64,000 bases of DNA from a virus. Taxonomy: Duplodnaviria; Caudoviricetes. Below are positions 9,649-53,029 of this stretch, in pieces. The stretch lies in IMG/VR virus record IMGVR_UViG_3300037483_000352, positions 1-64,000 of that record. One strand, 5' to 3'. A model generated the notes under the pieces. That model was not told the origin of the DNA. It was given only the letters and a program-made list of their open reading frames with translations, and searched no databases. Within the stretch, counting starts at the first letter, position 1. Every line of letters starts with the position of its first letter. The translations under genes were made by a program, and so were the position numbers.

Positions 9649-9728
9649 GACGCAGCCCCTTTGCGATCGGTTTGCTGGTGCATACCGGCTGTTGATCCAC
9701 TTCCGCTTGTTACTGACGCGTAAGAGAT

Positions 9729-9817
9729 CCAAAGCTCTGTGCGCCCGTCTGCGGGCCTCCCGGCGGTGCCCCGGTACCCGTGGACCCCCGCGCGGAGATA
9801 GGGATTCGCGCAGGTCA
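9729..9817 (-). repeat. dispersed composite repeat, full copy (TGACCTGCG...GGGTACC-N21-CAGACGGGCGCACAGAGCTTT)
   Basis: Collinear with the copies at 29542-29642 and 50497-50596. Confidence 0.8.
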
Positions 9818-9868
9818 GCGGGTGGTTGGAGCGATACGGACATCCCGGGCGCGTTTGCTCCCGGCCGG

Positions 9869-11385: not shown

Positions 11386-13232
11386 TCTGCGGCGGATGTA
11401 CCCGGGGCGATCACTGTGGTCGCCCCGGGCCCGTCGGACTCCGGACCGGGACGTGTGCGTGCCAGCACCTCCCGCCGGGGTCCTGGAGGGGCGTGGAGAC
11501 CGGTCTGACGGCCCCGGGGAATGTCCCGGGGCCGGACCCCCAGGGCGATGTCATTGGCCCGGCAGACGCCGCCACAGGGGACCTGGTGACCATTCTCACG
11601 GCCTGGCAGCGGCTCCACCGGGCGGGCCGGTTCATCGAGGCCGCCGCCCTGCGCCGGGGACTGATCCACAAGCTGAGCCGACTCGGACCGAAGGAGTGAC
11701 CATGACTGTGCAGTATGTACCGGCCGGATCCCTGGTGGCCGGTGACGTGATCTCGTACCCGGGACGCCCCGAAGCCGTGGTGGTCCGGGCCGCCGAATCG
11801 CTGGCAGATCTCTTCGGCCGTGAGATGTCCGCGCACTGGTGCCGTCTGACGGACGGCGCGCAGGCGCGCGAAGGCTGGGTCCCCTACGGGCCCGGCGGGG
11901 TCCTGCCCGTAGTGAAGGAGGACTGACCATGGCCATGACCCACATTGATCACGACGGCCACACCCTGGAGATCAGCACAGAGATGATTGAAGTTACTTCA
12001 ATGGGTCCGGAGCCGAATCCCGGGTGGAAGTTCACCGACGGCCAGGGCCATGAGCACGACGCGCAGCAGGCCGAGGAGGGACACGTCCTGTACCCCACCC
12101 TGCGCCTGGAGTCCGGCCCTGCGTCGTGGTGTCCGGACTGCCGGGACGACCATACGGACTCGTGGTTCGTCTGCCGCCAGTGCGAGGAGAAGATCATCCC
12201 GGGCGTCGTGTACCCGTCCGGACCCCGGTTCGTCCGGGGCCTGACCTCGTACGAGATCGACGGCGAGCCGGTCGACCCGGCCACCGCGCGCGCCTTCGTC
12301 ACCGCGTGGCAGCGCAGCATTGACGACGCCAACAACGACGCCGTGGCCGCGCTGATCGACCTGCGCATGGAGGGGAACGGCCATGCTTGACGATGCGTTC
12401 AACAAGATCGTCGATTACGCGGCGACCCGTGCCGGGGACGCCACCGCAGACCGCTGCCGACCGCAGCTCCGCCCCCTGGTCCAGGAACTCCTGAACGAGA
12501 TCTCCGGGGAGATCGCCGCTGCCTGGGGACCGACCGACGCCGAGGCGGAAGGCCTGGTGTTCGCGCTCGGTTACCTGCGCACCCGGTACGCCGGTCCGCA
12601 GGATCCGGCGCCGGGGTGTCCGTTCACCCACACCCGCGCGTTCTGCGGTTACGAAGGGTGCCGTGAGTCATGACCTGGAAGATGGTGATCACTACATCGG
12701 CCAGTTTGTACGCCGACGGGATCTACCGGCTGTTCGGCCGGGAGACAGCCGATCCGTCACTGGAGGTCTCCGTGCGCGGCCGGTACGTCACCGCCAAGTC
12801 CGACGACCCGGCCAGGCTGCTGCACATCGCCAACAGGTCCACCGGCCGCGAGATGCAGCGCGGGTTCGTCGTGAAGATCCAGATACAGGAGAACCGGTCA
12901 TGAGGACCCGCCGCCGTCACTGGCCGACCTGGCGCATGCCGAGGTTCTTCGTGTCCGACGCCGCACATGTGCGCCTGTCCCTGCCGTGGCACGGGGTGGC
13001 CTCGTGGGACGACATGCACGCGTACGTGGTCGCCGCGATCATGGATAACACCGTACCCAACGCGTTCCGTGGACGAGGAGGCAAGACCGATCAAGAGCTT
13101 GCCGAGTCGCTCGCGCGCGGCATCCTGCTGTCGCTGTGCCACCGGCTCGGGGTCGAACCGGTCGGCGCGTTCACCTACCACCTGCCCGACGACGAGCGAG
13201 AGGCCGAGGAGGCCGAGATCCATGGACAGTGA
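11382..13232 (+). other. six hypothetical genes (11382-11699, 11702-11926, 11929-12390, 12383-12673, 12670-12903, 12900-13232)
   Basis: Tightly coupled ORFs with GGAG-type RBSs; no family recognised. Confidence 0.55.
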
Positions 13233-18928: not shown

Positions 18929-20716
18929 ATGACCACTGAGACACCCCCGATGTACCCGTGCACGGTGTGCGGCCGGACCGACCTGAAGCTGACACAGCAC
19001 TCCAAGATCCGTAAGCACACATCCAACGGGAAGCGCGCGTCCGAGGACAACCCGCACTGCGCCGGGTCGGGCACCGTGCCCGCTGGCAATGGCGCAGCGG
19101 CCCCGCAGAGCGCGTTCCACGCGGCCCCGGTACCGGGTGACCCTGCCGCCGTGGCAGGCCCGGAGCGGGGCGATGTGGCAACCGCCGGTGACGGCAGCTG
19201 GACCAGCCCGGTTGTCCAGGCTGGCTCGGTACCCGACCAGTGCCCTGGCTGCGGTCATGCCGGGCACTCCGGGATCTGCCGTGAGCTGACCATGGACGGT
19301 CCCCCCGGCGATGTGGACGAGTGCGGCTGCCTGGATGACCAAGAACCTGTAGCCGCCGGTGCCGTGGTACGCGTGGCCGACTGCCGCCAGTGCGATCAGG
19401 ACCTCCACGTGTGCCCCGGGTGTGGTGAGCCGGTCAAGCACGGCGTGACCGTGTGCGCCGACTGCAACGCCCCTGACGTCCATGTCGCGGCTCCCCAGAG
19501 TGCGGCCGGGTCGTTCCTCATGGGCACGGCTCACGACGCGTCAGACGGCTACGGGGACGCCATGGATGCCCTCATGGCGGGCGACCGTCCCAGCGACGGC
19601 ACGGACCAGCTCTACAAGAACGGCCGCTACGCGCTGCCGGACCCGGTCACCGGCGTGCCCCGTACCTGGACGCGGTCCACCACCATGGCCGAGACCCTGA
19701 GCGATCTCTACTCGCTGAACCTGTGGAAAGTCCGCATGGCCATGATCGGGGTAACCCGGTTCCCGGACCTGCTGGACGAGCTGCGGGAGATCGACGCCCA
19801 GGACTCCGACGAGGGCAACCTGTCCCCCAAGGTCCACCGGGAGATCCTGAACCGCGTCGGCCTGCGCGCTCAGGATCTCGCCGGTGCCAAGGTCCCCGCG
19901 AGCTGGGGAACCGACATGCACAACAACATCGAGGCCCTGTCCCGGGACGAGATCACCTTGGACGACGTCCCCGAGAAGTACCGTCGCGAGGTCACCGCCT
20001 GGGCCGCCGCCATGAGCGACGCGGACCTGTCGGCCGTTCCCCACCTGATCGAACGCGTGATCTCCGTGCCCCTGTACGGGGTGGCAGGGAGGTTCGACCA
20101 GATCGACCGTATCCACCGTTCCCGGTCCATCCGGCTCGGCAACCGGATTGTCCGGCTGAACGCCGGTGACCACATTCCAGGTGACGTGAAGTCGGGACGT
20201 GACCTTGATTACGGCTGGGGTGAGATCTCCATCCAGATGTCCCTGTACGCGCACGGCGCGCGGGAGGGCAAGGTCGCCAAGTGGGACCCCGAGGGCGGGG
20301 ACGGCGAGGGCGCCTGGGTGTGGGAGGACATCGGCATCCCGGCCAAGTCCATCCGCACAGACGTCGGGGTGGTCATGCACGTGCCGATCGGCGGGGGTCA
20401 GTGCACGCTGCACTGGATCGACCTGGAGGAGGGGTGGAAGGCCGTGCAGCTCTGTGAGGCCGTCAAGGACTGGCGCAGGGCCAAGGGGCTGCACACCCCG
20501 TTCTCGATTGCCGAGGTGCCCACCGGCGAGGCCGCGCGGCCGGTCGTACGTCAGCCGGACTGGGACGAAAAATTCTCAGGTGTGACCACCACGGACCAGG
20601 CCCGCGAGGTCTATCGCGCCTACCTCGCGGCAGGTGGGTCTAAGGGCCTGGAGCTTGCTCGGCTGGTGGACCTGGCCAAGACCCACCTGCGACAGCTCAC
20701 CGAGGAAAGTGCCTGA
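18929..20716 (+). CDS. PD-(D/E)xK (RecB/Cas4-like) exonuclease with Cys-rich N-terminal extension
   Basis: TWTRSTTMA...WGTDMH...VAGRFDQID...GDVKSG...IQMSLYA, typical of actinophage recombination exonucleases. Confidence 0.8.
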   Translation: MTTETPPMYPCTVCGRTDLKLTQHSKIRKHTSNGKRASEDNPHCAGSGTVPAGNGAAAPQSAFHAAPVPGDPAAVAGPERGDVATAGDGSWTSPVVQAGSVPDQCPGCGHAGHSGICRELTMDGPPGDVDECGCLDDQEPVAAGAVVRVADCRQCDQDLHVCPGCGEPVKHGVTVCADCNAPDVHVAAPQSAAGSFLMGTAHDASDGYGDAMDALMAGDRPSDGTDQLYKNGRYALPDPVTGVPRTWTRSTTMAETLSDLYSLNLWKVRMAMIGVTRFPDLLDELREIDAQDSDEGNLSPKVHREILNRVGLRAQDLAGAKVPASWGTDMHNNIEALSRDEITLDDVPEKYRREVTAWAAAMSDADLSAVPHLIERVISVPLYGVAGRFDQIDRIHRSRSIRLGNRIVRLNAGDHIPGDVKSGRDLDYGWGEISIQMSLYAHGAREGKVAKWDPEGGDGEGAWVWEDIGIPAKSIRTDVGVVMHVPIGGGQCTLHWIDLEEGWKAVQLCEAVKDWRRAKGLHTPFSIAEVPTGEAARPVVRQPDWDEKFSGVTTTDQAREVYRAYLAAGGSKGLELARLVDLAKTHLRQLTEESA

Positions 20717-22167: not shown

Positions 22168-22292
22168 TGCACCACAGCGGGGTCGCTGGGCTCCGCAGGG
22201 GACCGGGTGGGTGCCCGCGTACCACCCCGGTTCCGTACCGCGCTCAGACGGCCGCACAGACATTTCGATCAAGTAAGGACTTGAGGTTGATC

Positions 22293-29476: not shown

Positions 29477-29541
29477 GCCATGCATAATTTCCCGGCCGAA
29501 GATCAATGTCCGTTTTTCCCGTATCGTGAAAACCAATGTTC

Positions 29542-29642
29542 GTGATCACGCCCCTGGCCTGCGGAAATCCCTAACCCAAAGTGGGTGGTACGCGGGTACC
29601 AGGAAGGGGGTCCAGGCCCGCAGACGGGCGTACAGAGCTTTT
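29542..29642 (+). repeat. dispersed composite repeat, full copy
   Basis: GTGATCACG..CTGGCCTGCG-N30-GGGTACC-N20-CAGACGGGCGTACAGAGCTTTT. Confidence 0.8.
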
Positions 29643-30340
29643 AAGTACCACTGTTTGTACCGCGCTTCCCCAGCATAACTACTCACCCCCGTGCATAAGT
29701 TGTTGGAGAACGCCATTTCCGCATGGTGGAAATGCCGGCTTTCCGATCTACGAAAACGCCATTCTCCACGTGCCGGGAAACGGTCCGGCCGGTCCCCTTG
29801 CTCCCGCGCTCATGTCCCCGGGAGCGCGGGTGAGTTGACCCCTCCAGAAAACTTTCTAAAGAATCTTGACGAAACCTATTGCATCCCCCGAACGGGGGGC
29901 GCACATTGGAGACACAACAAAACAACGGGTGATCGGCCCCGAAGATCCAAAATCGGACGTCGCACAGGCCACCAGGCCTCGTGATCACCCGGAGCCCCCG
30001 GACGGCGGGGGCGGGCCTTCGCACCGGGCCCCGGAAGTTCATCAGGTGGAGACGGCCTTACCGAAGGGCCCCAAAAAATCTTCGTAGATCCAAAGGGAAC
30101 GGACCGGGTACCCCGGACGGTCGCGATCATCACCCCCGCTCACGCGGACCGGCGATCACGGCACATGGGTGATACGGAAACCCACTACCGGCGGAACGAC
30201 AGCTCAAGGATCGCTAGGAGTTGATCCGGTGGTGACCATGCGACCCGGTACCTCGTGCCGGATGGACACCCAGGGGAACAACCCGGAACGATCAAGGCGG
30301 GCATGATCTGGTGGTAGGTCCCATCGGGTGTCCGCAACAT

Positions 30341-30417
30341 GGCACGGAGGCGATAGACACCGGCACTGGAAGCCGGGACCGAGAGGCGCCTAGCGGGTTC
30401 GGATCCCGCCCCTGCCA
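30341..30417 (+). other. tRNA-like element (degenerate tRNA or pseudogene)
   Basis: Acceptor GGCACGG/CCCTGCC-A with one mismatch; T-arm GCGGG-TTCGGAT-CCCGC; stem CCGGC-ACTGGAA-GCCGG; D region only 12 nt; 16-nt variable region. Confidence 0.6.
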
Positions 30418-30970
30418 CTGATCACCGGTTGCCAGGAACGATGGGTCACGAACCCGGGAAACAAACAGGCACGGTGTGATCAACCACTAATCATCCGGTC
30501 AACCCGAGGAGCCGATCATGGCGAACCGCCAGGAGATCTTCCGGAAGGGATTCACCTACGTGATCACCCGCCGGATCGTCCAGCGGAAGACGTCGACCGT
30601 CCTCCGGGTCCGGGTCACCGCATACAAGGGCATGGCCATTCGCAGCAAGACCCCGGAGTTCAACGAGTACCGCGACTACGCCAGCATCGCCGAGGGCGAC
30701 ATGGTGTACGCCCGTCACATCGACAAGATCAACAAGTGAGGTACCCCATGTTCCAGATCACGGTCACCGACAGCACTGACCTGCTGGGTATCCGCACTGC
30801 CAGGACCGCCTCCGAGATGGAGGACGTTGTCACCGCGCTGCACAAGGAGTTCCCCGGGGCCCACGTCGACGTCAGGACGTTCGCTCAGATCCAGGCCGAG
30901 GACGACTACCTCGGTCGTCAGGAGACGCTGGCCGACGCAGCAGCCTGGTACGACATGGACCGCTGATCGA

Positions 30971-35387: not shown

Positions 35388-38300
35388 ATGGGAGACGACG
35401 CAGCGCAGTACCGGGCCGAATGGTCCACCCGGGCGGACCGCGCGCCGTCTGATGTCTACGTACCGGCGGCCCTGCGCGAGGCCGCCGACGTGGCCCCCAG
35501 GGCCTGCCCGGAGGGCGGTACGGCAGCAGCCATCGACAATACCGCCGACACGGTCCAGCCGGGCGATACGGCCACCGTGGTCTACCGGCGCCAGGGCCAG
35601 GAGTACGTCATCCGGCTGACCGACACCCACCGGTCCCCGGGCCGGGTGTCCGGCCGGATAACCGGTATCGAGGAGGTACCGCAGGGATGAGCACACGCCG
35701 ACGCACCACCACCCGGCGCCGGACCGTCCGCCAGGATCACCGGCGCGGCCACGGACACCGGAGCCGTAACGGGTCTGGGTGGATCACAACACTCGTCATC
35801 ATCGCAATGATCGTCATCGCCGCTGGCAATGACATGATCCAGATCACAGGGAAGTGACCACATGACAGACAAGATCACGTGGGAGCGCAGTACGGGAGTC
35901 GGCCGGTCCGGGTGGACCGGAACCGTCGGCGGCCGTCGGCTGTTCACGATCGAGGTTTCCGTCACGCGCGGGGTCGGCTGGCAGCTCCGTTCGACGCTGC
36001 CGTACGGCCTTGTACCGGAGAAGGCGACAGGTCAGGACGAGGCCGTCATCAAGGAGTACGCGGAACGCGTGCTGACCAGGTTCGTCCGTTCGCTCGGGGC
36101 CGCATGGCCCGATGGGAAGTGATCACATGTCCGACAAGATCAGTACCTGGTACGTGGTGTCCGACGCATCCGACCGCATCGAACCGGTGGACGAGGACAC
36201 ACCCACCCACTACCAGACCCCCCAGGAGGCCGGAGACGGCATCGTGAACGGCTTCCACGGGGAGACGGGCACACGGTACGTCCTGGAGGTGGAGGTCGCT
36301 CCTGTGGCCATCTACGACCGCACATGGACCCTCGCCCGTAGCCAGCCGGACCCCGGCCCCCCGGTCGACCCGTTCTTCGACTCCCGGCAGTTCAACTCCG
36401 GGCCGGAGGTCAGCTGACCATGGCAACGATCATCACCCTGCCGGACCGCGACGAGATGGCCAACCGCCTCGTCGCGGTCGACGGCAGCGGGGACCTGGTC
36501 CGCCACTTCTACCCGCGTCTGCTGAGCAAGACCGGGAAGTCGAGCGGTCCCGCCGGGTTCGTGGTGCTCATGAACGAAGCCCTGGGGAACTACGCCACCG
36601 GGTCGCCCAAGGAGGGACGACCCGGCCGGGTCGTGAGTCTGATCACGCGCGTCGGGGAGTTCACCCGCGCGCTGATCGACGACGAGGACGCCCGGACCGA
36701 GATCTTCGACGTGTTCGAGTCGGCCGGGGTCCCGGTCCGGCGGGAGGTCTGATCATGAGCGCTCTCACGCACAACGAGTCGAGCGAGGCGCTCGCCCGGG
36801 GCCCCTACGCGAAGCGCTACCGGCCGTGGCCCCCGGAAGGGTACGCCCCACCGACCGGCGAGGAGTTCCGGCAGCTTGCGGAGAAGATCCGCAGGCACGG
36901 TACCTACACGCTCACGCGCATGGGTCGGGACAAGATCCAGGACGAGGTGATCATCCGGCACATGCAGCTGATCGAGATCTTCCCCGACCAACGCGGGGCC
37001 AAGATCTACGACTACACCCGGTGGCTCCGGGAAGAGATGAACCGCCGGAAGATCACACACAAGTCGATCAAGCTGCCCCGCTGCGGTCTCTGCTCGCACG
37101 CGAGCGAGCGTCTGTGGGAGGTCACCCCGGAAACGCACAACATCATCGAGCACGACAAGCCGTGGTCGGGATTCGTCTGCTCCCGCTGCTGGTCGGAGTA
37201 TCTGATCACTGAAGACTGATCAAGGAGACAGCAGAATGAAGATCGAAGACATCTTCCCCCTGGGAAACGTCTGGGCCGGTGCGTTCGAAAAGATGGAGTG
37301 GGCCGACGACGAGATCGACAAGGCCCGTGCCCGGCACGGCGAGACGGACCGGGGGCCGCTGTGGCACAGCTTCCTGACCGTCTGTCAGAACGAGCCGTAC
37401 ATGGCCGACGAGATCATCTACCGGGCCCACGCGCGGGAAATCCTCGAACGGGTGGCCGCCGGTCACGACGTCCGGCCGGGCACCGACGCCGAGATGATCG
37501 CGGCCCTGAGGGATTCCAGCAAGACGGCTCCGCTGTCGTCGTCGGCTGTGTGCCTGTATTTCCGCATCGCGGCCCGGTCGTTCCCGGACCTGTGGGCCAA
37601 GGCCGGAGATCATTCCGACCTGACCGCGTACGAGTCCGTGCACGGGTCGGCCGCCGATGATCACGAATCGTGGCTCCGGGCCAAGATGACCCGGAACCGA
37701 GAGGTCTGATCGCGAATGGTCAGCTACCTGCGCTGCTGCGCCGGGTGCGGCGGGTCGTTCGCCGTCGCGTACACCACTAACGAAGCGTGGTTCTGCCCGA
37801 AGTGCACGGCCGCGCTTCCCGAGTTCAATCCCCAGCCCTACGGCCGGGGGCGCCCGGACGATCAGAGCGTCCGCTACGGGCCCTACCTCGTTCAATATGT
37901 CGTCCTTGATCGCAAGGGCGACATGGTGACGATCAGGCCCATGGGCAACCCGGACGCGATGTCGTTCGAGGTCCACGTCAACAACCTGCGACCGATGTGG
38001 GTCACCTACGGCCGCTGAGAAGGGAGAGGTCATGAGCGCTGCCCGGCGCTGGACGCTGTGGGGGTGGACGGCCCGGTTCCGGCTGGATCCGGAGATCCCG
38101 ATCCGGATCACGACAGGCAGCCTCCGGGACTGCAACACACGGGAACGCCAGTTCCGTCAGGACTACCCGGACGCACTGACCGGGGTCTACGAGTTCGGAG
38201 ACAAGCCGGTAGGCCTGTCGATCCAGGTACAGCAGCGCATCGCGGAGACGTGACCATGACGACGCGCGAGGTGAGCATCCTGGCGACCGAGGCATGCCGG

Positions 38301-42316: not shown

Positions 42317-42364
42317 GGGTACCCGCTCGCGGGGTGAGGCCGTCAGACGGCCGTACAGAGCTTC
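42317..42364 (+). repeat. dispersed bipartite repeat, short copy
   Basis: GGGTACC-N20-CAGACGGCCGTACAGAGCTTC. Confidence 0.75.
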
Positions 42365-42594: not shown

Positions 42595-42864
42595 ATGTCA
42601 TTCAACGACCGCTTGATCGGTGCGTTCACCGTCCAGCCGAACAGGTTGGCGCCGGGCGACGTGATCGCCGACATGGAGGGACGCCGGGCAATCCGGATAG
42701 ACCAGATCAAGCCCATACTGATCAACTGCCACGGACACGAGACCCCGGTCTGGTGGATCAAGGGAACGCAGGACAGGGATGACGGGTGGTTCAACATCCC
42801 GGTCATCACAGTCTGTGTCCCCCGCCAGCCCTGGTACCGGCTCGCACGTTCCGACAGGGCGTGA
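42595..42864 (+). CDS. hypothetical protein
   Basis: AAGGA RBS and ATG at 42595. Confidence 0.55.
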   Translation: MSFNDRLIGAFTVQPNRLAPGDVIADMEGRRAIRIDQIKPILINCHGHETPVWWIKGTQDRDDGWFNIPVITVCVPRQPWYRLARSDRA

Positions 42865-42949
42865 CACACCCGCTGTCCGCAACGGTCCTGGCATCCGCCG
42901 GGGCCGTTGCCCGGTGGCAGCTCAACCGAGCACCGGAAGGAGGTACATC

Positions 42950-43198
42950 GTGGACGCTCTGACGAAACGTCAGCTGGAGGTCACCCGGCTTGCCGCCGGG
43001 GGACTGACCAACGCCGAGATAGCAACTGAACTGGGGATCAAGCCGGAGTCCGTGAAGTCCCACCTCTCCGGCGCGTGCAGGAAAATGGGTGCGCGCAACC
43101 GCGCGCACCTGGTGCACCTGGCCCACGGGGCCGGGCTCTTCGAGGGGACGAAGGCCGGTGTGCGCTCACGAGACACCACAGGAAGCCGCGCGTTGTAG
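42950..43198 (+). CDS. LuxR-type HTH DNA-binding protein
   Basis: LTKRQLEVTRLAAGGLTNAEIATELGIKPESVKSHLSGACRKMGARNRAHLV; GGAGG RBS. Confidence 0.9.
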   Translation: MDALTKRQLEVTRLAAGGLTNAEIATELGIKPESVKSHLSGACRKMGARNRAHLVHLAHGAGLFEGTKAGVRSRDTTGSRAL

Positions 43199-49348: not shown

Positions 49349-49393
49349 CGCAAAAATGCCCCCTCTCCGATCCGGAGAGGGGGCATTTTTGCG
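49349..49393. terminator. bidirectional rho-independent terminator
   Basis: CGCAAAAATGCCCCCTCTCCG-ATC-CGGAGAGGGGGCATTTTTGCG, a perfect 21-bp stem between convergent genes. Confidence 0.9.
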
Positions 49394-49394
49394 T

Positions 49395-49769
49395 TCAGGA
49401 CGTCAGCTTGCCGGGCACCGACCCGGCATGGGACGAGGAGACCGGGGCGCCCACGTACTTGCGCAGGAAGAACGATCCGACGACGGTGATCAGGGCGAGC
49501 ACGTTGGTCTGAGCTTCGGCGGCCCACTCCAGGCCGAACGCTGCGAACAGGGATCCGGCCGCAACCACGATGCCGGACGCGAGGGCGATCAGGCCCTCGT
49601 TCACCGCGATGGCCGTGACGACCGCGAAGACGAACACGATGCCCGCGTTGACCCAGCCCTGAACGTGGCCGTCCAGGTCGAGTCCGTAGCCCGTGAGTAC
49701 CTGGCCTACACCGGCGACCAGCGCCAGGTAGATCGTGATCTCTCGGCCGAAAATCTTGACGGGGTTCAT
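49395..49769 (-). CDS. holin
   Basis: MNPVKIFGRE...; four TM segments; IFGRE start typical of Streptomyces phage holins. Confidence 0.75.
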   Translation of the reverse strand: MNPVKIFGREITIYLALVAGVGQVLTGYGLDLDGHVQGWVNAGIVFVFAVVTAIAVNEGLIALASGIVVAAGSLFAAFGLEWAAEAQTNVLALITVVGSFFLRKYVGAPVSSSHAGSVPGKLTS

Positions 49770-49784: not shown

Positions 49785-49964
49785 CTATCCGATGATCTCT
49801 ACCAGTCGGCGAAGACCCCCTGTGATGTAACCCCCCGGGCCTGTGTCCCCAACGAGACACCCGGCCACGAAGAACACGGATGCGATCAGTATTGCGGGGT
49901 GCCTTCGGCCCATGATGAGCGCGATGCCCACGACGAGCGACAGAATGGCCAGGGGGATCCACAC
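49785..49964 (-). CDS. small two-TM membrane protein
   Basis: VWIPLAILSLVVGIALIMGRRHPAILIASVFFVAGCLVG; start approximate. Confidence 0.5.
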   Translation of the reverse strand: MWIPLAILSLVVGIALIMGRRHPAILIASVFFVAGCLVGDTGPGGYITGGLRRLVEIIG

Positions 49965-50198
49965 ACGGGGAATGTAGCACCCCGACCAGCAGGCCCGAGG
50001 CGCTGCCCGGCGGGGGTCCTGACGCGTTCCTGGGGGGTACCCGGTACCGGCGCCCCGCACCACCCTGGAACGGGCGCAGACGGGCACACAGGGGTTTAGA
50101 TCTCCGGGCCCGACGAATTTAGATGTAGGGACCAAGTCCACCAATGCGATCCTGGCACGACGAAGGGCCCCCGCTTCCGCGAGGGCCCTGGTGGTCGG

Positions 50199-50306
50199 TT
50201 ACTTCTTGATCTTCGGGGTGGTCACCGACTTGGCGTTCGGTGTCCTGCGGGCGATCTTGATTGCGGAGAAGAAGATCGCTGCCGCTACGCCGGGAGTCTT
50301 GTTCAT
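50199..50306 (-). CDS. 35-aa basic small protein (not in ORF track)
   Basis: MNKTPGVAAAIFFSAIKIARRTPNAKSVTTPKIKK*; GGAG RBS, upstream promoter, downstream hairpin at 50162-50188. Confidence 0.55.
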   Translation of the reverse strand: MNKTPGVAAAIFFSAIKIARRTPNAKSVTTPKIKK

Positions 50307-50345
50307 GATCTGCTCCGTTGCTCGCTGTTTAGTTTGTCTAGTAAG

Positions 50346-50375
50346 AACCTATTGCCCATGTTGGTACCGAGTCAA
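50346..50375 (-). promoter_or_regulatory. HrdB/sigma70-type promoter
   Basis: Minus strand TTGACT-N18-TAGGTT in an AT-rich patch. Confidence 0.7.
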
Positions 50376-50496
50376 TACGTTTCGTAGAGATTCGTAAAGA
50401 TTGTTTACGTAGTTGACTTGGTCCCTACATCTAAATTCATCCGGTCGGTTTGTACCATGGTCATCCGGAGCCTGGTTACCGCCAGGTATTCGCCAA

Positions 50497-50596
50497 AACG
50501 CCCTGTGTGCCCGTCTGACGAGATCCTTTGTCTCCGGGGTACCCGTGGACCACCGGGCTTGGGTTAGGGATTCGCGCAGGTCAGAAGCGTGATCAC
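50497..50596 (-). repeat. dispersed composite repeat, full copy
   Basis: GTGATCACG..CTGACCTGCG-N30-GGGTACC-N20-CAGACGGGCACACAGGGCGTTTT on the minus strand. Confidence 0.8.
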
Positions 50597-50642
50597 GGGT
50601 ATTGGTTGGAACGAAACGGACATTCAGGACCTCGGGTTTGTA

Positions 50643-51152
50643 TCAGCTCGCGGCGATCTTTTCGTAGATCACGGCGACCCTGGTCCCGTAGTCGGCGGCC
50701 GGTGCCCAGCGGGTCCCGAGGCGTTCGACCACCGTGGCCGATCCGTAACCGGCGCTGCCGGGGGAGACCCACACCGCGCGCGGGTCCGGGCTGTCGTCCG
50801 GCACCGGGAGACCTGCGTACAGCCTCAGGTGGTGAGCGTGCGCCAGCGCCCCCAACCGTGGGTAGCCGAACGGATCAAGAGCGAATCGGGCATGGTCCGC
50901 CGGGAGGTCGCCGGTGGCTGTGCGGATCTTTAGGCCGCACGTGTTGCCGTACGTCTCGTCGATCACCCCGCCGAACCGGCCGTAGCTGGTCTCGTGCGCG
51001 CACTGCGCCGCGAGGACGGCCGGATCGACCCCGGTCGACAGCCCGGCGTCGTACAGAGCGATGACCGCGCGCCGGTACCAGTCCGGGTACGTCAGGGCAA
51101 AGTTCTGGATCTTCCACAGCGGGATGCTCGGGGGAGCGATGATTGCGATCAT
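50643..51152 (-). CDS. glucosaminidase (GH73-like) cell wall hydrolase
   Basis: GVDPAVLAAQCAHETSYG...NTCGLK...HAHHL...WAPAADYG. Confidence 0.75.
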   Translation of the reverse strand: MIAIIAPPSIPLWKIQNFALTYPDWYRRAVIALYDAGLSTGVDPAVLAAQCAHETSYGRFGGVIDETYGNTCGLKIRTATGDLPADHARFALDPFGYPRLGALAHAHHLRLYAGLPVPDDSPDPRAVWVSPGSAGYGSATVVERLGTRWAPAADYGTRVAVIYEKIAAS

Positions 51153-51154
51153 GG

Positions 51155-51619
51155 TCAGCCTCCAACCAGGACGTTCACTGCGATGACCACGGACACGATC
51201 AGACCGGCCGCTGCCACCACCCACCCGTACAGCGCGGCCTGTCCGCCGGACCGGCCCGCTGAGCGGTCGGACTGCTTCTTGAGGTTGTCGATCTGGTCCT
51301 TGAAGGACCCCAGCTTGGCATCGAACTCCACGCGCGTGATGAACGAGGCATTCTGGTCGGAAAGCTGCGCGCGGAACTCGTTGACCGCCTCGAACCGCTT
51401 CTCAGCCGCCAGTTCAGCCTTGCTCACCGCCCGGTCCGCCGAATCCAGGGCCGTGGTCACGGCCTTCTCCGCCGCGACGAACGCCGCGTCCAGTGCCTTG
51501 GTCTGGGTCTGGTACCTCTCGTCGAGCAGCCTGCGAAGATCACGGATCTCCTGCTGCGTGGCCGCGCGGAGAGTATTGATCGTCCATCCGCTCACGGGAT
51601 CATCGATCTCACCGCTCAC
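51155..51619 (-). CDS. coiled-coil protein with C-terminal TM helix (lysis region)
   Basis: AAEKAV...EKRFEAVNEFRAQL coiled coil plus terminal hydrophobic helix. Confidence 0.7.
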   Translation of the reverse strand: MSGEIDDPVSGWTINTLRAATQQEIRDLRRLLDERYQTQTKALDAAFVAAEKAVTTALDSADRAVSKAELAAEKRFEAVNEFRAQLSDQNASFITRVEFDAKLGSFKDQIDNLKKQSDRSAGRSGGQAALYGWVVAAAGLIVSVVIAVNVLVGG

Positions 51620-51801
51620 CGGTCGCCCCCCTGAAGTAGAGATGGATTCCAGTCCCTCACTTCGTTGTACGCCCAGTCGAACGCTTCACGCCAGCTCCCG
51701 AATGGCCGACTCTCGTCTTCGTAGTTTCCTGAGAAACCACGGGTGATGGTGACCATCCACTGGCACCCCCACCTGAATACCACCGGCTTGGGGTATATCA
51801 C
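51616..51801 (-). CDS. hypothetical protein
   Basis: 61 aa, coupled at both ends. Confidence 0.5.
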   Translation of the reverse strand: MIYPKPVVFRWGCQWMVTITRGFSGNYEDESRPFGSWREAFDWAYNEVRDWNPSLLQGGDR

Positions 51802-52700
51802 TGGTATCGGACCTTGTCCCCGATGCCGATGTTGGAGTCCTTGATCGCCGGATTCAGCTTCTCTAGCGCGGCCACCGTGGTCTTGTACCGCTTAGCGATC
51901 GAGTACAGGGTGTCGCCGGACACCACAGTGTGGAACCTCTGCCCGGCCGACACGGTGATCTTCTGGCCGACGGACAGGACGTCGTTCTTCACCGAGGGGT
52001 TCAGCGCCCGGAGGACGGCCACGGTGACCCCGTACTTCCGGCCGATCGACCACAGGGTGTCGCCGTCCACCACGGTGTGCGTCCTGGCCGCCGGTGCGGC
52101 CGTGGCCACGGTCATGCGCCTCTCGATCCGCTTCCGCATGGACGTCATGGTGAACCCGCGCGGGTCGACCTTGCCGGGCTGCCACTCCAGGTGACCGATC
52201 ACGTGGTTCTCGTTCCAGCCGTGATACTTGCAGATCGCCGCGCTCACACGCTCGACGGTGAGCAGCTGAGCGGCAGGCCACGGGTCCTGGCCGTCCCCGA
52301 GGTTCTCGCACTCGAAGCCGTAGAACGACCGGTTGCCGTCCGTGTTGGATTCGTTCCGGACGGGCGCCGCGCGCCCCGCCTTGACGGCCGTCAGAACGTC
52401 GTCGTCCCCCAGCCCGGCATGATTCGCGCGGCCGTATCCGACGAGGTGGACCCTTCCGTCCTTGGTGATCACGCCGTGGCACAGCGGGCCGGGCAGCGTG
52501 CTGTGTCCCGTCCGGCAGATGTCCACCGTGCGCTGGCTTCCCCGGGTGACCGTGTGGTGGATCATCACGCCGTGCACCGGCCCCCATGATCCCTTACTGT
52601 TGCGGTTGTGCGTCTCCCAGTCGCCGACCTCCACCACGGTCACACCGGCCGCCCGCAGAACGGATGCGAACTTACTGGCGCTCATCGGAACAGTGCTCAT
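51798..52700 (-). CDS. endolysin: N-acetylmuramoyl-L-alanine amidase plus two LysM domains
   Basis: GVMIHHT...GPLCH...GRANHAG...YGFECEN...HLEW..GKVDP; two HTVVxGDTLxSI LysM repeats. Confidence 0.93.
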   Translation of the reverse strand: MSTVPMSASKFASVLRAAGVTVVEVGDWETHNRNSKGSWGPVHGVMIHHTVTRGSQRTVDICRTGHSTLPGPLCHGVITKDGRVHLVGYGRANHAGLGDDDVLTAVKAGRAAPVRNESNTDGNRSFYGFECENLGDGQDPWPAAQLLTVERVSAAICKYHGWNENHVIGHLEWQPGKVDPRGFTMTSMRKRIERRMTVATAAPAARTHTVVDGDTLWSIGRKYGVTVAVLRALNPSVKNDVLSVGQKITVSAGQRFHTVVSGDTLYSIAKRYKTTVAALEKLNPAIKDSNIGIGDKVRYQ

Positions 52701-53029
52701 GATCGGTGCCCCCCCTTCGAACGAGCGGTCCTCCGGTCCACCAGCTGGACCCTGAGAAGAGCGATCACGTGGCCGAGGATCGCAGTCCCGATGACGATCA
52801 CCAGGACTATGCGGATCATACGGACCGCGTCCAGGTTCTCCCACCGGGAGAAGACCAGGGACAGTGCGGCCAGACCGGCCAGGCCGCCCATCATCATCAT
52901 GATCAGTCTGCCGGTGGACGTCCTCCACCACGGGGTGATCAAGCTGTAGACAGTAGCGAACAGCATGGCCATGGCGGAGGCGTACGCGCTGGCCCATATG
53001 TTGATCGTTTCTAGCAGCTCACTTTCCAC
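52697..53029 (-). CDS. putative holin (three TM)
   Basis: FATVYSLITPWWRTSTGR...; directly upstream of the endolysin. Confidence 0.65.
   Translation of the reverse strand: MESELLETINIWASAYASAMAMLFATVYSLITPWWRTSTGRLIMMMMGGLAGLAALSLVFSRWENLDAVRMIRIVLVIVIGTAILGHVIALLRVQLVDRRTARSKGGHRS

Follow-up and report, generated by a model that had tools for sequence, protein, structure and literature searches.

A small repeat-bounded unit in the lysis operon of a sediment phage, a candidate moron with a 35-codon gene

The repeat-bounded unit and its described counterparts

Morons are a main route by which phages gain small host-modifying genes, and the ways in which they are inserted and insulated are poorly understood. 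Here we analyse nested inverted repeats (IRs) in the lysis operon of a phage of the Caudoviricetes, IMG/VR record IMGVR_UViG_3300037483_000352. The record stems from a sediment metagenome assembly, comprises 88,083 bp with 66% GC and is approximately 82% complete; its first 64 kb are the window, i.e. the whole stretch of DNA to which the initial annotation refers. The inner repeats enclose a 35-codon open reading frame (ORF) between promoter-like and terminator-like sequences. On balance, we read these repeats as the borders of a separate, moron-like accessory unit of 336 bp and not as a DNA switch.

According to published criteria, a moron is extra DNA in comparison to related phages, has its own promoter and terminator and deviates in GC content (Cumby, Davidson and Maxwell 2012, PMC3594210). 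The element containing HK97 gene 15 is a lambdoid example, and its small product gp15 was proposed to insert into the inner membrane (PMC3594210). At the locus described here, extra DNA is found between conserved genes, together with a terminator (according to fold prediction) and a deviating base composition. Like the lambdoid morons, the unit lies between late-operon genes, is missing in a relative, has a putative promoter and terminator of its own, deviates in GC and encodes a small product. Unlike them, it has IR ends (a perfect 24-bp match within 33 bp), adjoins a phage-specific dispersed element, which we named E, and comprises only 35 codons. The lambdoid morons and this unit have no sequence relation, and expression of the latter in a repressed or carrier state is only predicted.

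The unit also resembles MPME1 and MPME2 of mycobacteriophages, since it resides in an actinophage, is a few hundred bp long, has terminal IRs and is present or absent among relatives. MPMEs, however, are known from multiple independent sites, where the 439-bp copies are identical and a characteristic 6-bp addition adjoins IR-L (Pope et al. 2011, PMC3029335), whereas the unit in the lysis operon is single-copy wherever we searched, has no junction signature and shows the layout promoter, micro-gene, terminator. Such a repeat-bounded promoter-to-terminator unit of 35 codons is a variant of the moron or of the ultra-small cassette and does not represent a new class.

The inner repeat is 33 nt long and 91% complementary (50109-50141 / 50412-50444), and its arms are 270 nt apart. 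It includes a perfect 24-mer (50115-50138 / 50415-50438), for which the chance expectation of a match is 0.00. The 336 bp bounded by the arms hold everything from promoter to terminator, in minus-strand orientation and exactly between the arms. The right arm (50412-50444) is located 35 nt upstream of the -35 hexamer and outside the predicted transcript of the micro-gene. It is followed just upstream of the -35 hexamer by three TACGWA repeats (50381-50411; starts at 50411, 50396 and 50386, spaced by 10-15 bp), which are possibly a binding site for a regulator. The promoter match (50347-50376) consists of TTGACT (50376-50371), a spacer of 18 nt and TAGGTT (50352-50347) and corresponds to a HrdB/sigma-70-like consensus. 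A GGAG ribosome-binding site (50313-50316) precedes by 6 nt the ATG of the 35-codon micro-ORF MNKTPGVAAAIFFSAIKIARRTPNAKSVTTPKIKK (50199-50306; ATG at 50306, TAA at 50201-50199), the product of which has a net charge of +8. The predicted terminator-type hairpin (50164-50189; GC stem of 11 bp, GGAA loop) follows the stop codon at a distance of 9 nt, and 23 nt after the hairpin the left arm (50109-50141) begins. The initial annotation had given the same positions for the 24-bp repeat and had listed the hexamers, the GGAG, the ORF and the hairpin within it, all of which are confirmed. It had also named an assembly artefact as a condition of refutation; the locus is base-for-base identical in two independent assemblies of the same sample, which makes an assembler-specific artefact unlikely.

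An argument for an added gene comes from the comparison with the relative G004 (L113), which was found via its amidase and is the only informative relative for this junction. A holin-alignment scan for further relatives recovered G004 alone, the endolysin relatives L005-L008 show no synteny at the junction, and the contig of another relative, G001, stops approximately 560 nt past the amidase. G004 has the same order of amidase (74% identity), glucosaminidase-like endolysin (64%), element E (nhmmer E=2.5e-31), small membrane ORF (44%) and holin (65-66%). The spacer from the end of CGGTAACC in E to the GTG of the small ORF is 165 nt long in G004 (71% GC) and 509 nt long here. The difference of 344 nt compares with the 336 nt of the repeat-bounded unit, the residual spacers being 173 nt (here) and 165 nt (G004). 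Local alignments of the cassette and its flanks to the G004 spacer were within the shuffle range, while a neighbouring gene used as a control aligned with clear significance; the cassette is found nowhere else in G004, and the spacer there contains no inverted core of E. Thus the empty site in a related phage, for which the initial annotation had recommended to search, is apparently present in G004. Since the closest relative lacks the unit, an add-on gene is favoured over a switch.

The micro-ORF has the properties of a gene. Its GC content at the three codon positions is 0.37/0.51/0.86, with the third-position bias of genuine genes of this phage, compared to a GC3 of 0.65 for the overlapping antisense ORF, and it was predicted by the gene callers of two pipelines. 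A single relative of the peptide was detected among 1.84 billion representatives (36 aa, 85% identical, E=1.3e-9); it is encoded on one 821-bp ENA contig from a different source sample. The changes between the two peptides are conservative, also in the hydrophobic stretch, and AAAIFFSA.KIARRTPNAKS is invariant. No match to the peptide was found in PHROGs or by tblastn in phage or plasmid records, a protein atlas gave no usable lead, and the back-translated pattern of the peptide did not occur in the contigs of viruses, reference genomes or JGI metagenomes. Phage and plasmid records also contained no BLASTN match to the locus, the adjacent E copy or the cassette. Because the hydrophobic stretch is short and N-terminal, with approximately 11-14 residues (about residues 6-16), the peptide looks amphipathic or associated with the membrane surface, and not transmembrane. 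A type I toxin-antitoxin system was considered and rejected, the hydrophobic stretch being limited to residues ~6-16 and no promoter-like site having been found on the opposite strand.

We propose that the accessory unit sits in the spacer between the nearest copy of E and the gene pair for a small membrane protein and a holin in the late lysis operon. With its own putative host-type promoter, a ribosome-binding site, a gene for a very basic peptide and a strong hairpin as predicted terminator, it could be expressed by the host RNA polymerase independently of the late programme of the phage, such as when the phage persists as a plasmid or in a carrier state. The transcript is predicted to extend from ~50340 to ~50160, as it would start at the promoter and stop at the hairpin. 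With both inner arms outside this predicted transcript, the repeats would act only at the DNA level or in late transcripts reading through the unit. The peptide might be a membrane-associated exclusion factor or a factor modulating lysis, which is a guess by analogy with small moron products. We further assume that the unit was gained by insertion here and not lost in G004.

Several observations weigh against this interpretation. The promoter is a consensus match: the Streptomyces-type pattern TTGACN-N17-19-TAnnnT occurs once in the 88 kb, at the cassette, and approximately one such match per genome is expected by chance, while a strict E. coli-type scan did not flag the site. The enclosed segment had been described as markedly AT-rich. 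This holds for the promoter-containing 5’ half (50250-50450) and the arms, which have 42-52% GC, but not for the half with the ORF and the terminator (59-66%). At 46% GC, the region 50301-50500 is one of five such islands in the genome (66%), and low values are restricted to non-coding sequence, i.e. the promoter region, and to the arms. The codon usage of the ORF is that of a high-GC gene and its GC3 is high, therefore the composition is no proof of foreign origin. No integrase was found in the 88 kb, and temperate or carrier growth is hypothetical. As G004 is the only informative relative, gain in one phage is inseparable from loss in the other, and the spacers are too diverged to place the insertion point. 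Finally, perfect repeats (24/24 and 17/17) lie beside spacers which have diverged beyond recognition. This hints at repeats which arose recently or are maintained by selection, and a plain moron leaves this unexplained.

The outer repeat and the dispersed element E

Repeated intergenic elements are known from other phages, such as the PeSL cassettes of T4-type phages and the early promoters with CIR operators of phiC31. The outer arms of the nested repeats belong to an element which is similar to these insofar as it is conserved, dispersed and intergenic and lies at module junctions. It differs from them in its sequence, in its three blocks at fixed spacing and in an orientation which is not tied to the direction of the genes, and it is not found in multiple copies in phiC31.

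The outer repeat is a 17/17 match (50077-50093 / 50501-50517), in agreement with the initial annotation, which had missed, however, that it is not specific for the cassette. The 17-mer, with up to three mismatches, has five matches in the window compared to 0.65 expected, and it is the core of E, an intergenic element of approximately 170 nt which is dispersed in the genome and is no part of the accessory unit. There are five full copies, 17-21 kb apart and with nhmmer E-values of 1e-35 to 1e-46: E1 (9700-9865, minus strand), E2 (29504-29672, plus), E3 (50464-50634, minus) and, beyond the window, E4 (67974-68141, plus) and E5 (85315-85483, plus). Weaker copies are present within the window at 22217-22265 and 42317-42364, both on the plus strand. 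E3 (E=8.6e-46) is located directly downstream of the gene for the glucosaminidase-like endolysin, and in the repeat search the right outer arm (50501-50517, minus strand) proved to be its 17-nt core. The left outer arm (50077-50093) is part of a 28-nt inverted partial copy, E3’ (50076-50104, plus strand; E=0.007), which consists of the core and a GTTTAGATCTCC tail. This tail is closer to those of E1 and E5 than to that of E3, and loose GGTACC motifs are found 26-33 nt upstream, compared to 20-21 nt in canonical copies. At the other copies of E, no comparable nested repeats were detected, and the ends of the contig do not join into a sixth copy.

The general architecture of E is CTGACCTGCGG..CCCTAAC, GGGTACC and the CAGACGGGCRCACAGRG core, separated by 17-18 and 20-21 nt, respectively. 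These distances are fixed, while the sequence of the spacers is variable, and the tail contains a palindrome of the type TTAC-N6-GTAA. In E3 the blocks are CTGACCTGCG..CCCTAAC, 18 nt, GGGTACC, 20 nt, CAGACGGGCACACAGGG and a tail with TAC-N7-GTAA. The orientation of E is independent of the flanking genes, E4 and E5 being antisense to their neighbours. E is conserved in place: the copies of G004 at 12.8 (minus), 30.9 (plus) and 51.6 kb (minus) mirror E1-E3, and G001 harbours an orthologue of E5 in the same slot and orientation. The neighbourhoods of E1 and E2 are colinear between this phage and G004, therefore junctions with E are not generally variable.

A role of E as structured RNA was rejected, since RNAalifold yielded only -3.8 kcal/mol for seven copies, an unconvincing consensus structure, and no Rfam match was obtained. 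Apart from sub-threshold noise, tRNAs were the sole result of the gathering scan (window) and of a permissive scan (49900-50700). The missing fold, the missing Rfam match, the orientation untied to genes and the conserved place together suggest that E is probably a conserved DNA-level signal which is read by proteins, and not a hopping repeat.

The core of E, with approximately 35 nt (TTTCATGCCC-KY-AGACGGGCGYACAGRGC), was found in 78 records of Streptomyces phages, usually right after an intrinsic terminator. Examples are TG1 (19978-20032, after the repressor gene), Shaeky (36295-36344) and Yaboi (12282-12323). In phages of ~131 kb such as Yaboi, the core occurs twice per genome, apparently near the right-hand end of the long terminal repeat. 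The conservation of this asymmetric motif across diverse phages suggests that it is read by a host factor. An identity with the early promoters of phiC31 was dismissed, since only scattered weak matches and no repeated motif are present in that phage. We also rejected a phage sigma factor as the reader: no Sigma70_r2 match was obtained, and the r4_2 match corresponds to a LuxR/GerE-type helix-turn-helix (HTH) protein.

The gene for this HTH protein (42779-43198, plus strand; Sigma70_r4_2 match of 31.9 bits) is located just downstream of the E core at 42.3 kb and of a tRNA-Ile gene, and its product is a candidate for a site-specific phage regulator. The two weaker E cores (42344-42360 and 22245-22261) are in sense orientation, 24-33 nt upstream of start codons preceded by ribosome-binding sites. 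This is the arrangement to be expected if the core is part of a promoter or a leader, in contrast to the antisense E4 and E5. Downstream of E2, a stretch of approximately 850 nt (29672-30518) contains promoter-like TTGAC motifs and no ORF with coding-type GC3; it may correspond to a non-coding RNA or a long leader. Within it, a block of 86 nt (29843-29928) is 76% conserved in G004.

Alternative explanations of the nested repeats

The best-surviving alternative, albeit an unlikely one, is that the repeats work at the RNA level. This would be compatible with an inserted cassette. The nested arms would pair in late transcripts reading through from the endolysin genes and loop out the micro-gene, forming a substrate for the double-strand-specific RNase III or an insulator. 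The stem would consist of 17 bp, CTCCGG/CCGGAG and then 33 bp, and in this way the endolysin and holin messages would be uncoupled and the micro-gene silenced during lytic growth. Transcripts from the unit’s own promoter would carry neither arm if terminated, or the left arm only in the case of read-through, and would not form the stem. In line with this idea, both arms lie outside the predicted transcript of the micro-gene, the perfect repeats are set in an otherwise unconserved spacer, and a short third pair of complementary sequences is situated between the two. Further, folding of the 456-nt minus-strand RNA places both repeats in a single long helix (-197 kcal/mol, z = -8.9), but such a fold arises from any inverted repeat. 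With a single example there is no covariation to draw on, and the sense strand can form a G-U pair at only one of the three positions where the 33-nt arms are mismatched. Moreover, the internal terminator precedes the left arm, and most transcripts may not contain both arms together.

It is tempting to speculate about an RNA gate, in which pairing of the arms over ~56 bp in late transcripts excises or silences the micro-gene and RNase III separates the endolysin message from that of the holin, whereas in the carrier state the unit’s own promoter alone fires and the peptide is produced. We give this specific version a slim chance. If true, a repeat-bounded moron would be switched off by the late transcription of its own phage. 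The gate would have in common with the processing stems of rRNA that cargo is looped out, and we know of no description of such a gate for accessory genes of phages.

An operator pair, another proposal of the initial annotation, is improbable as well. Here the inverted E cores, which are 424 bp apart, and/or the inner arms would bind a dimeric or tetrameric regulator, and the resulting DNA loop would control the promoter of the micro-gene or the entry of transcription into the holin pair. The fixed spacing of E with its variable spacer sequence, the lack of a consensus RNA structure and the conserved position and orientation in relatives are hallmarks of a DNA site read by a protein. In addition, the phage encodes the LuxR/GerE-type HTH protein, and the TACGWA repeats adjoin the -35 hexamer. 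But four of the five full copies of E are unpaired, and E3’ does not show the canonical spacing to GGGTACC and is missing in G004. The inner arm, for its part, is unique to this locus according to the genome search.

The proximity of the hairpin to the stop codon, with 9 nt from the end of the latter to the start of the terminator stem, brings to mind a leader-peptide attenuator. In this case the promoter, the 35-codon ORF and the hairpin would sense translation for the downstream holin pair: a ribosome near the stop codon would hinder formation of the hairpin, and transcription would read through into the holin genes. The unit is indeed co-oriented with the holin pair and directly upstream of it, and the Pro/Lys-rich C-terminus of the peptide is conserved in the homologue. 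The high conservation, however, is equally well explained by a peptide acting in trans. In G004 the holin pair is present without the unit and hence does not need it, the distance from the hairpin to the next start codon is ~200 nt and includes the left arm and E3’, and a host promoter driving a holin would be a risk for the phage. An attenuator is therefore a rather remote explanation.

The initial annotation had proposed a miniature non-autonomous mobile cassette. Of its four proposals this is the best supported one, in the weaker sense of a discrete accessory unit of fitting size that is absent from G004; neither a second copy nor a target-site duplication was found, so that mobility is hypothetical. 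An active, ultra-small transposable element of the MITE (miniature inverted-repeat transposable element) or MPME type, mobilised in trans, would explain the terminal IRs of 24-33 bp, the size of 336 bp, the missing transposase gene and the absence from the relative. Yet no second copy of the inner arm was detected in the phage genome, even with six mismatches or with 14-mers, or in G004. It was also absent from phage and plasmid records and, in scans limited to exact matches, from 2.9 million viral contigs, 185,579 reference genomes and the JGI metagenome contigs. No direct repeat flanks the 24-nt or the 33-nt boundaries, and the pre-insertion site cannot be aligned; the missing target-site duplication also counts against an inserted moron. 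Altogether we consider active transposition very unlikely.

Even less can be said for inversion, which had also been suggested and which we hardly expect. The geometry would allow a recombinase to flip the 276-bp segment between the 24-bp arms and to redirect the promoter with respect to the holin side, as perfect repeats flank less than 300 bp with a promoter; invertons, such as the candidate viral ones (PMC13501310), likewise have inverted repeats around a short segment with a promoter. Unlike invertons, this segment has no invertase gene nearby and was found in one orientation, and its own ORF and terminator make inversion unnecessary. That no recombinase is visible had been noted before for the window, and this applies to the whole record: no match to Resolvase (PF00239) or Phage_integrase (PF00589), i.e. 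to serine or tyrosine recombinases, was found in the 88 kb with working positive controls, although the record is ~82% complete and a host enzyme could act instead. In an independent assembly, the locus lies on a single contig of 41.5 kb, in one orientation and without a variant, and the strand-switch joints of this contig are cross-matches to other E copies. The sequencing runs listed for the locus comprise no RNA run and a single DNA run, which yielded these contigs and is probably the source of the record; since contigs drop rare variants, a rare inverted form could still exist. The flipped promoter would point antisense into an endolysin gene, with no obvious gain. A resolution or terminus site, considered here also as a hairpin telomere of the telRL type, found no support, since the arms, with 270 nt between them, are not a contiguous palindrome and no tyrosine-recombinase match was obtained (a dedicated protelomerase profile was not run).

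The lysis operon and the meaning of the unit

The repeat-bounded unit lies among the lysis genes which form one end of a long operon on the minus strand. In the direction of transcription, the operon comprises the genes for Phage_holin_2 (52700-53029), an endolysin with Amidase_2 and two LysM domains (51801-52997), a coiled-coil protein with a C-terminal membrane helix (51158-51619) and the glucosaminidase-like endolysin (50646-51152). These are followed by the cassette region, by a two-helix membrane ORF of ~59 codons (49785-49964; GTG start at 49964), which is homologous to a 59-aa ORF in G004, and by the phrog_9752 holin (49398-49769). A perfect 21-bp hairpin terminator (49349-49393) is positioned directly after this holin. 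Thus, the cassette does separate a holin from the two lysins, as initially described, but the two-helix ORF intervenes and a second holin is encoded upstream of the lysins. The coiled-coil gene is also missing in G004, where the corresponding interval is 113 nt long compared to 577 nt here; the lysis module would therefore have taken up accessory DNA twice. In the Logan data, the contig over the lysis and early half has a depth of 14.9, and a 34-kb contig with the E4 region has a depth of 31.3. Co-occurring phages may share the two halves of the 88-kb record to different extents; alternatively, the record may be composite.

In summary, the unit has sharp IR ends, its site is apparently empty in a relative, and the encoded micro-protein is too small for routine annotation. 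Its location matters, since mis-expression in a lysis operon would be costly. If the repeats are functional, as an RNA gate or as a protein-bound loop, they would show how an add-on gene can be insulated within an essential operon. Last but not least, E is a conserved and syntenic three-block element, the core of which is present in dozens of cultured Streptomyces phages, and this makes its analysis in the laboratory feasible.

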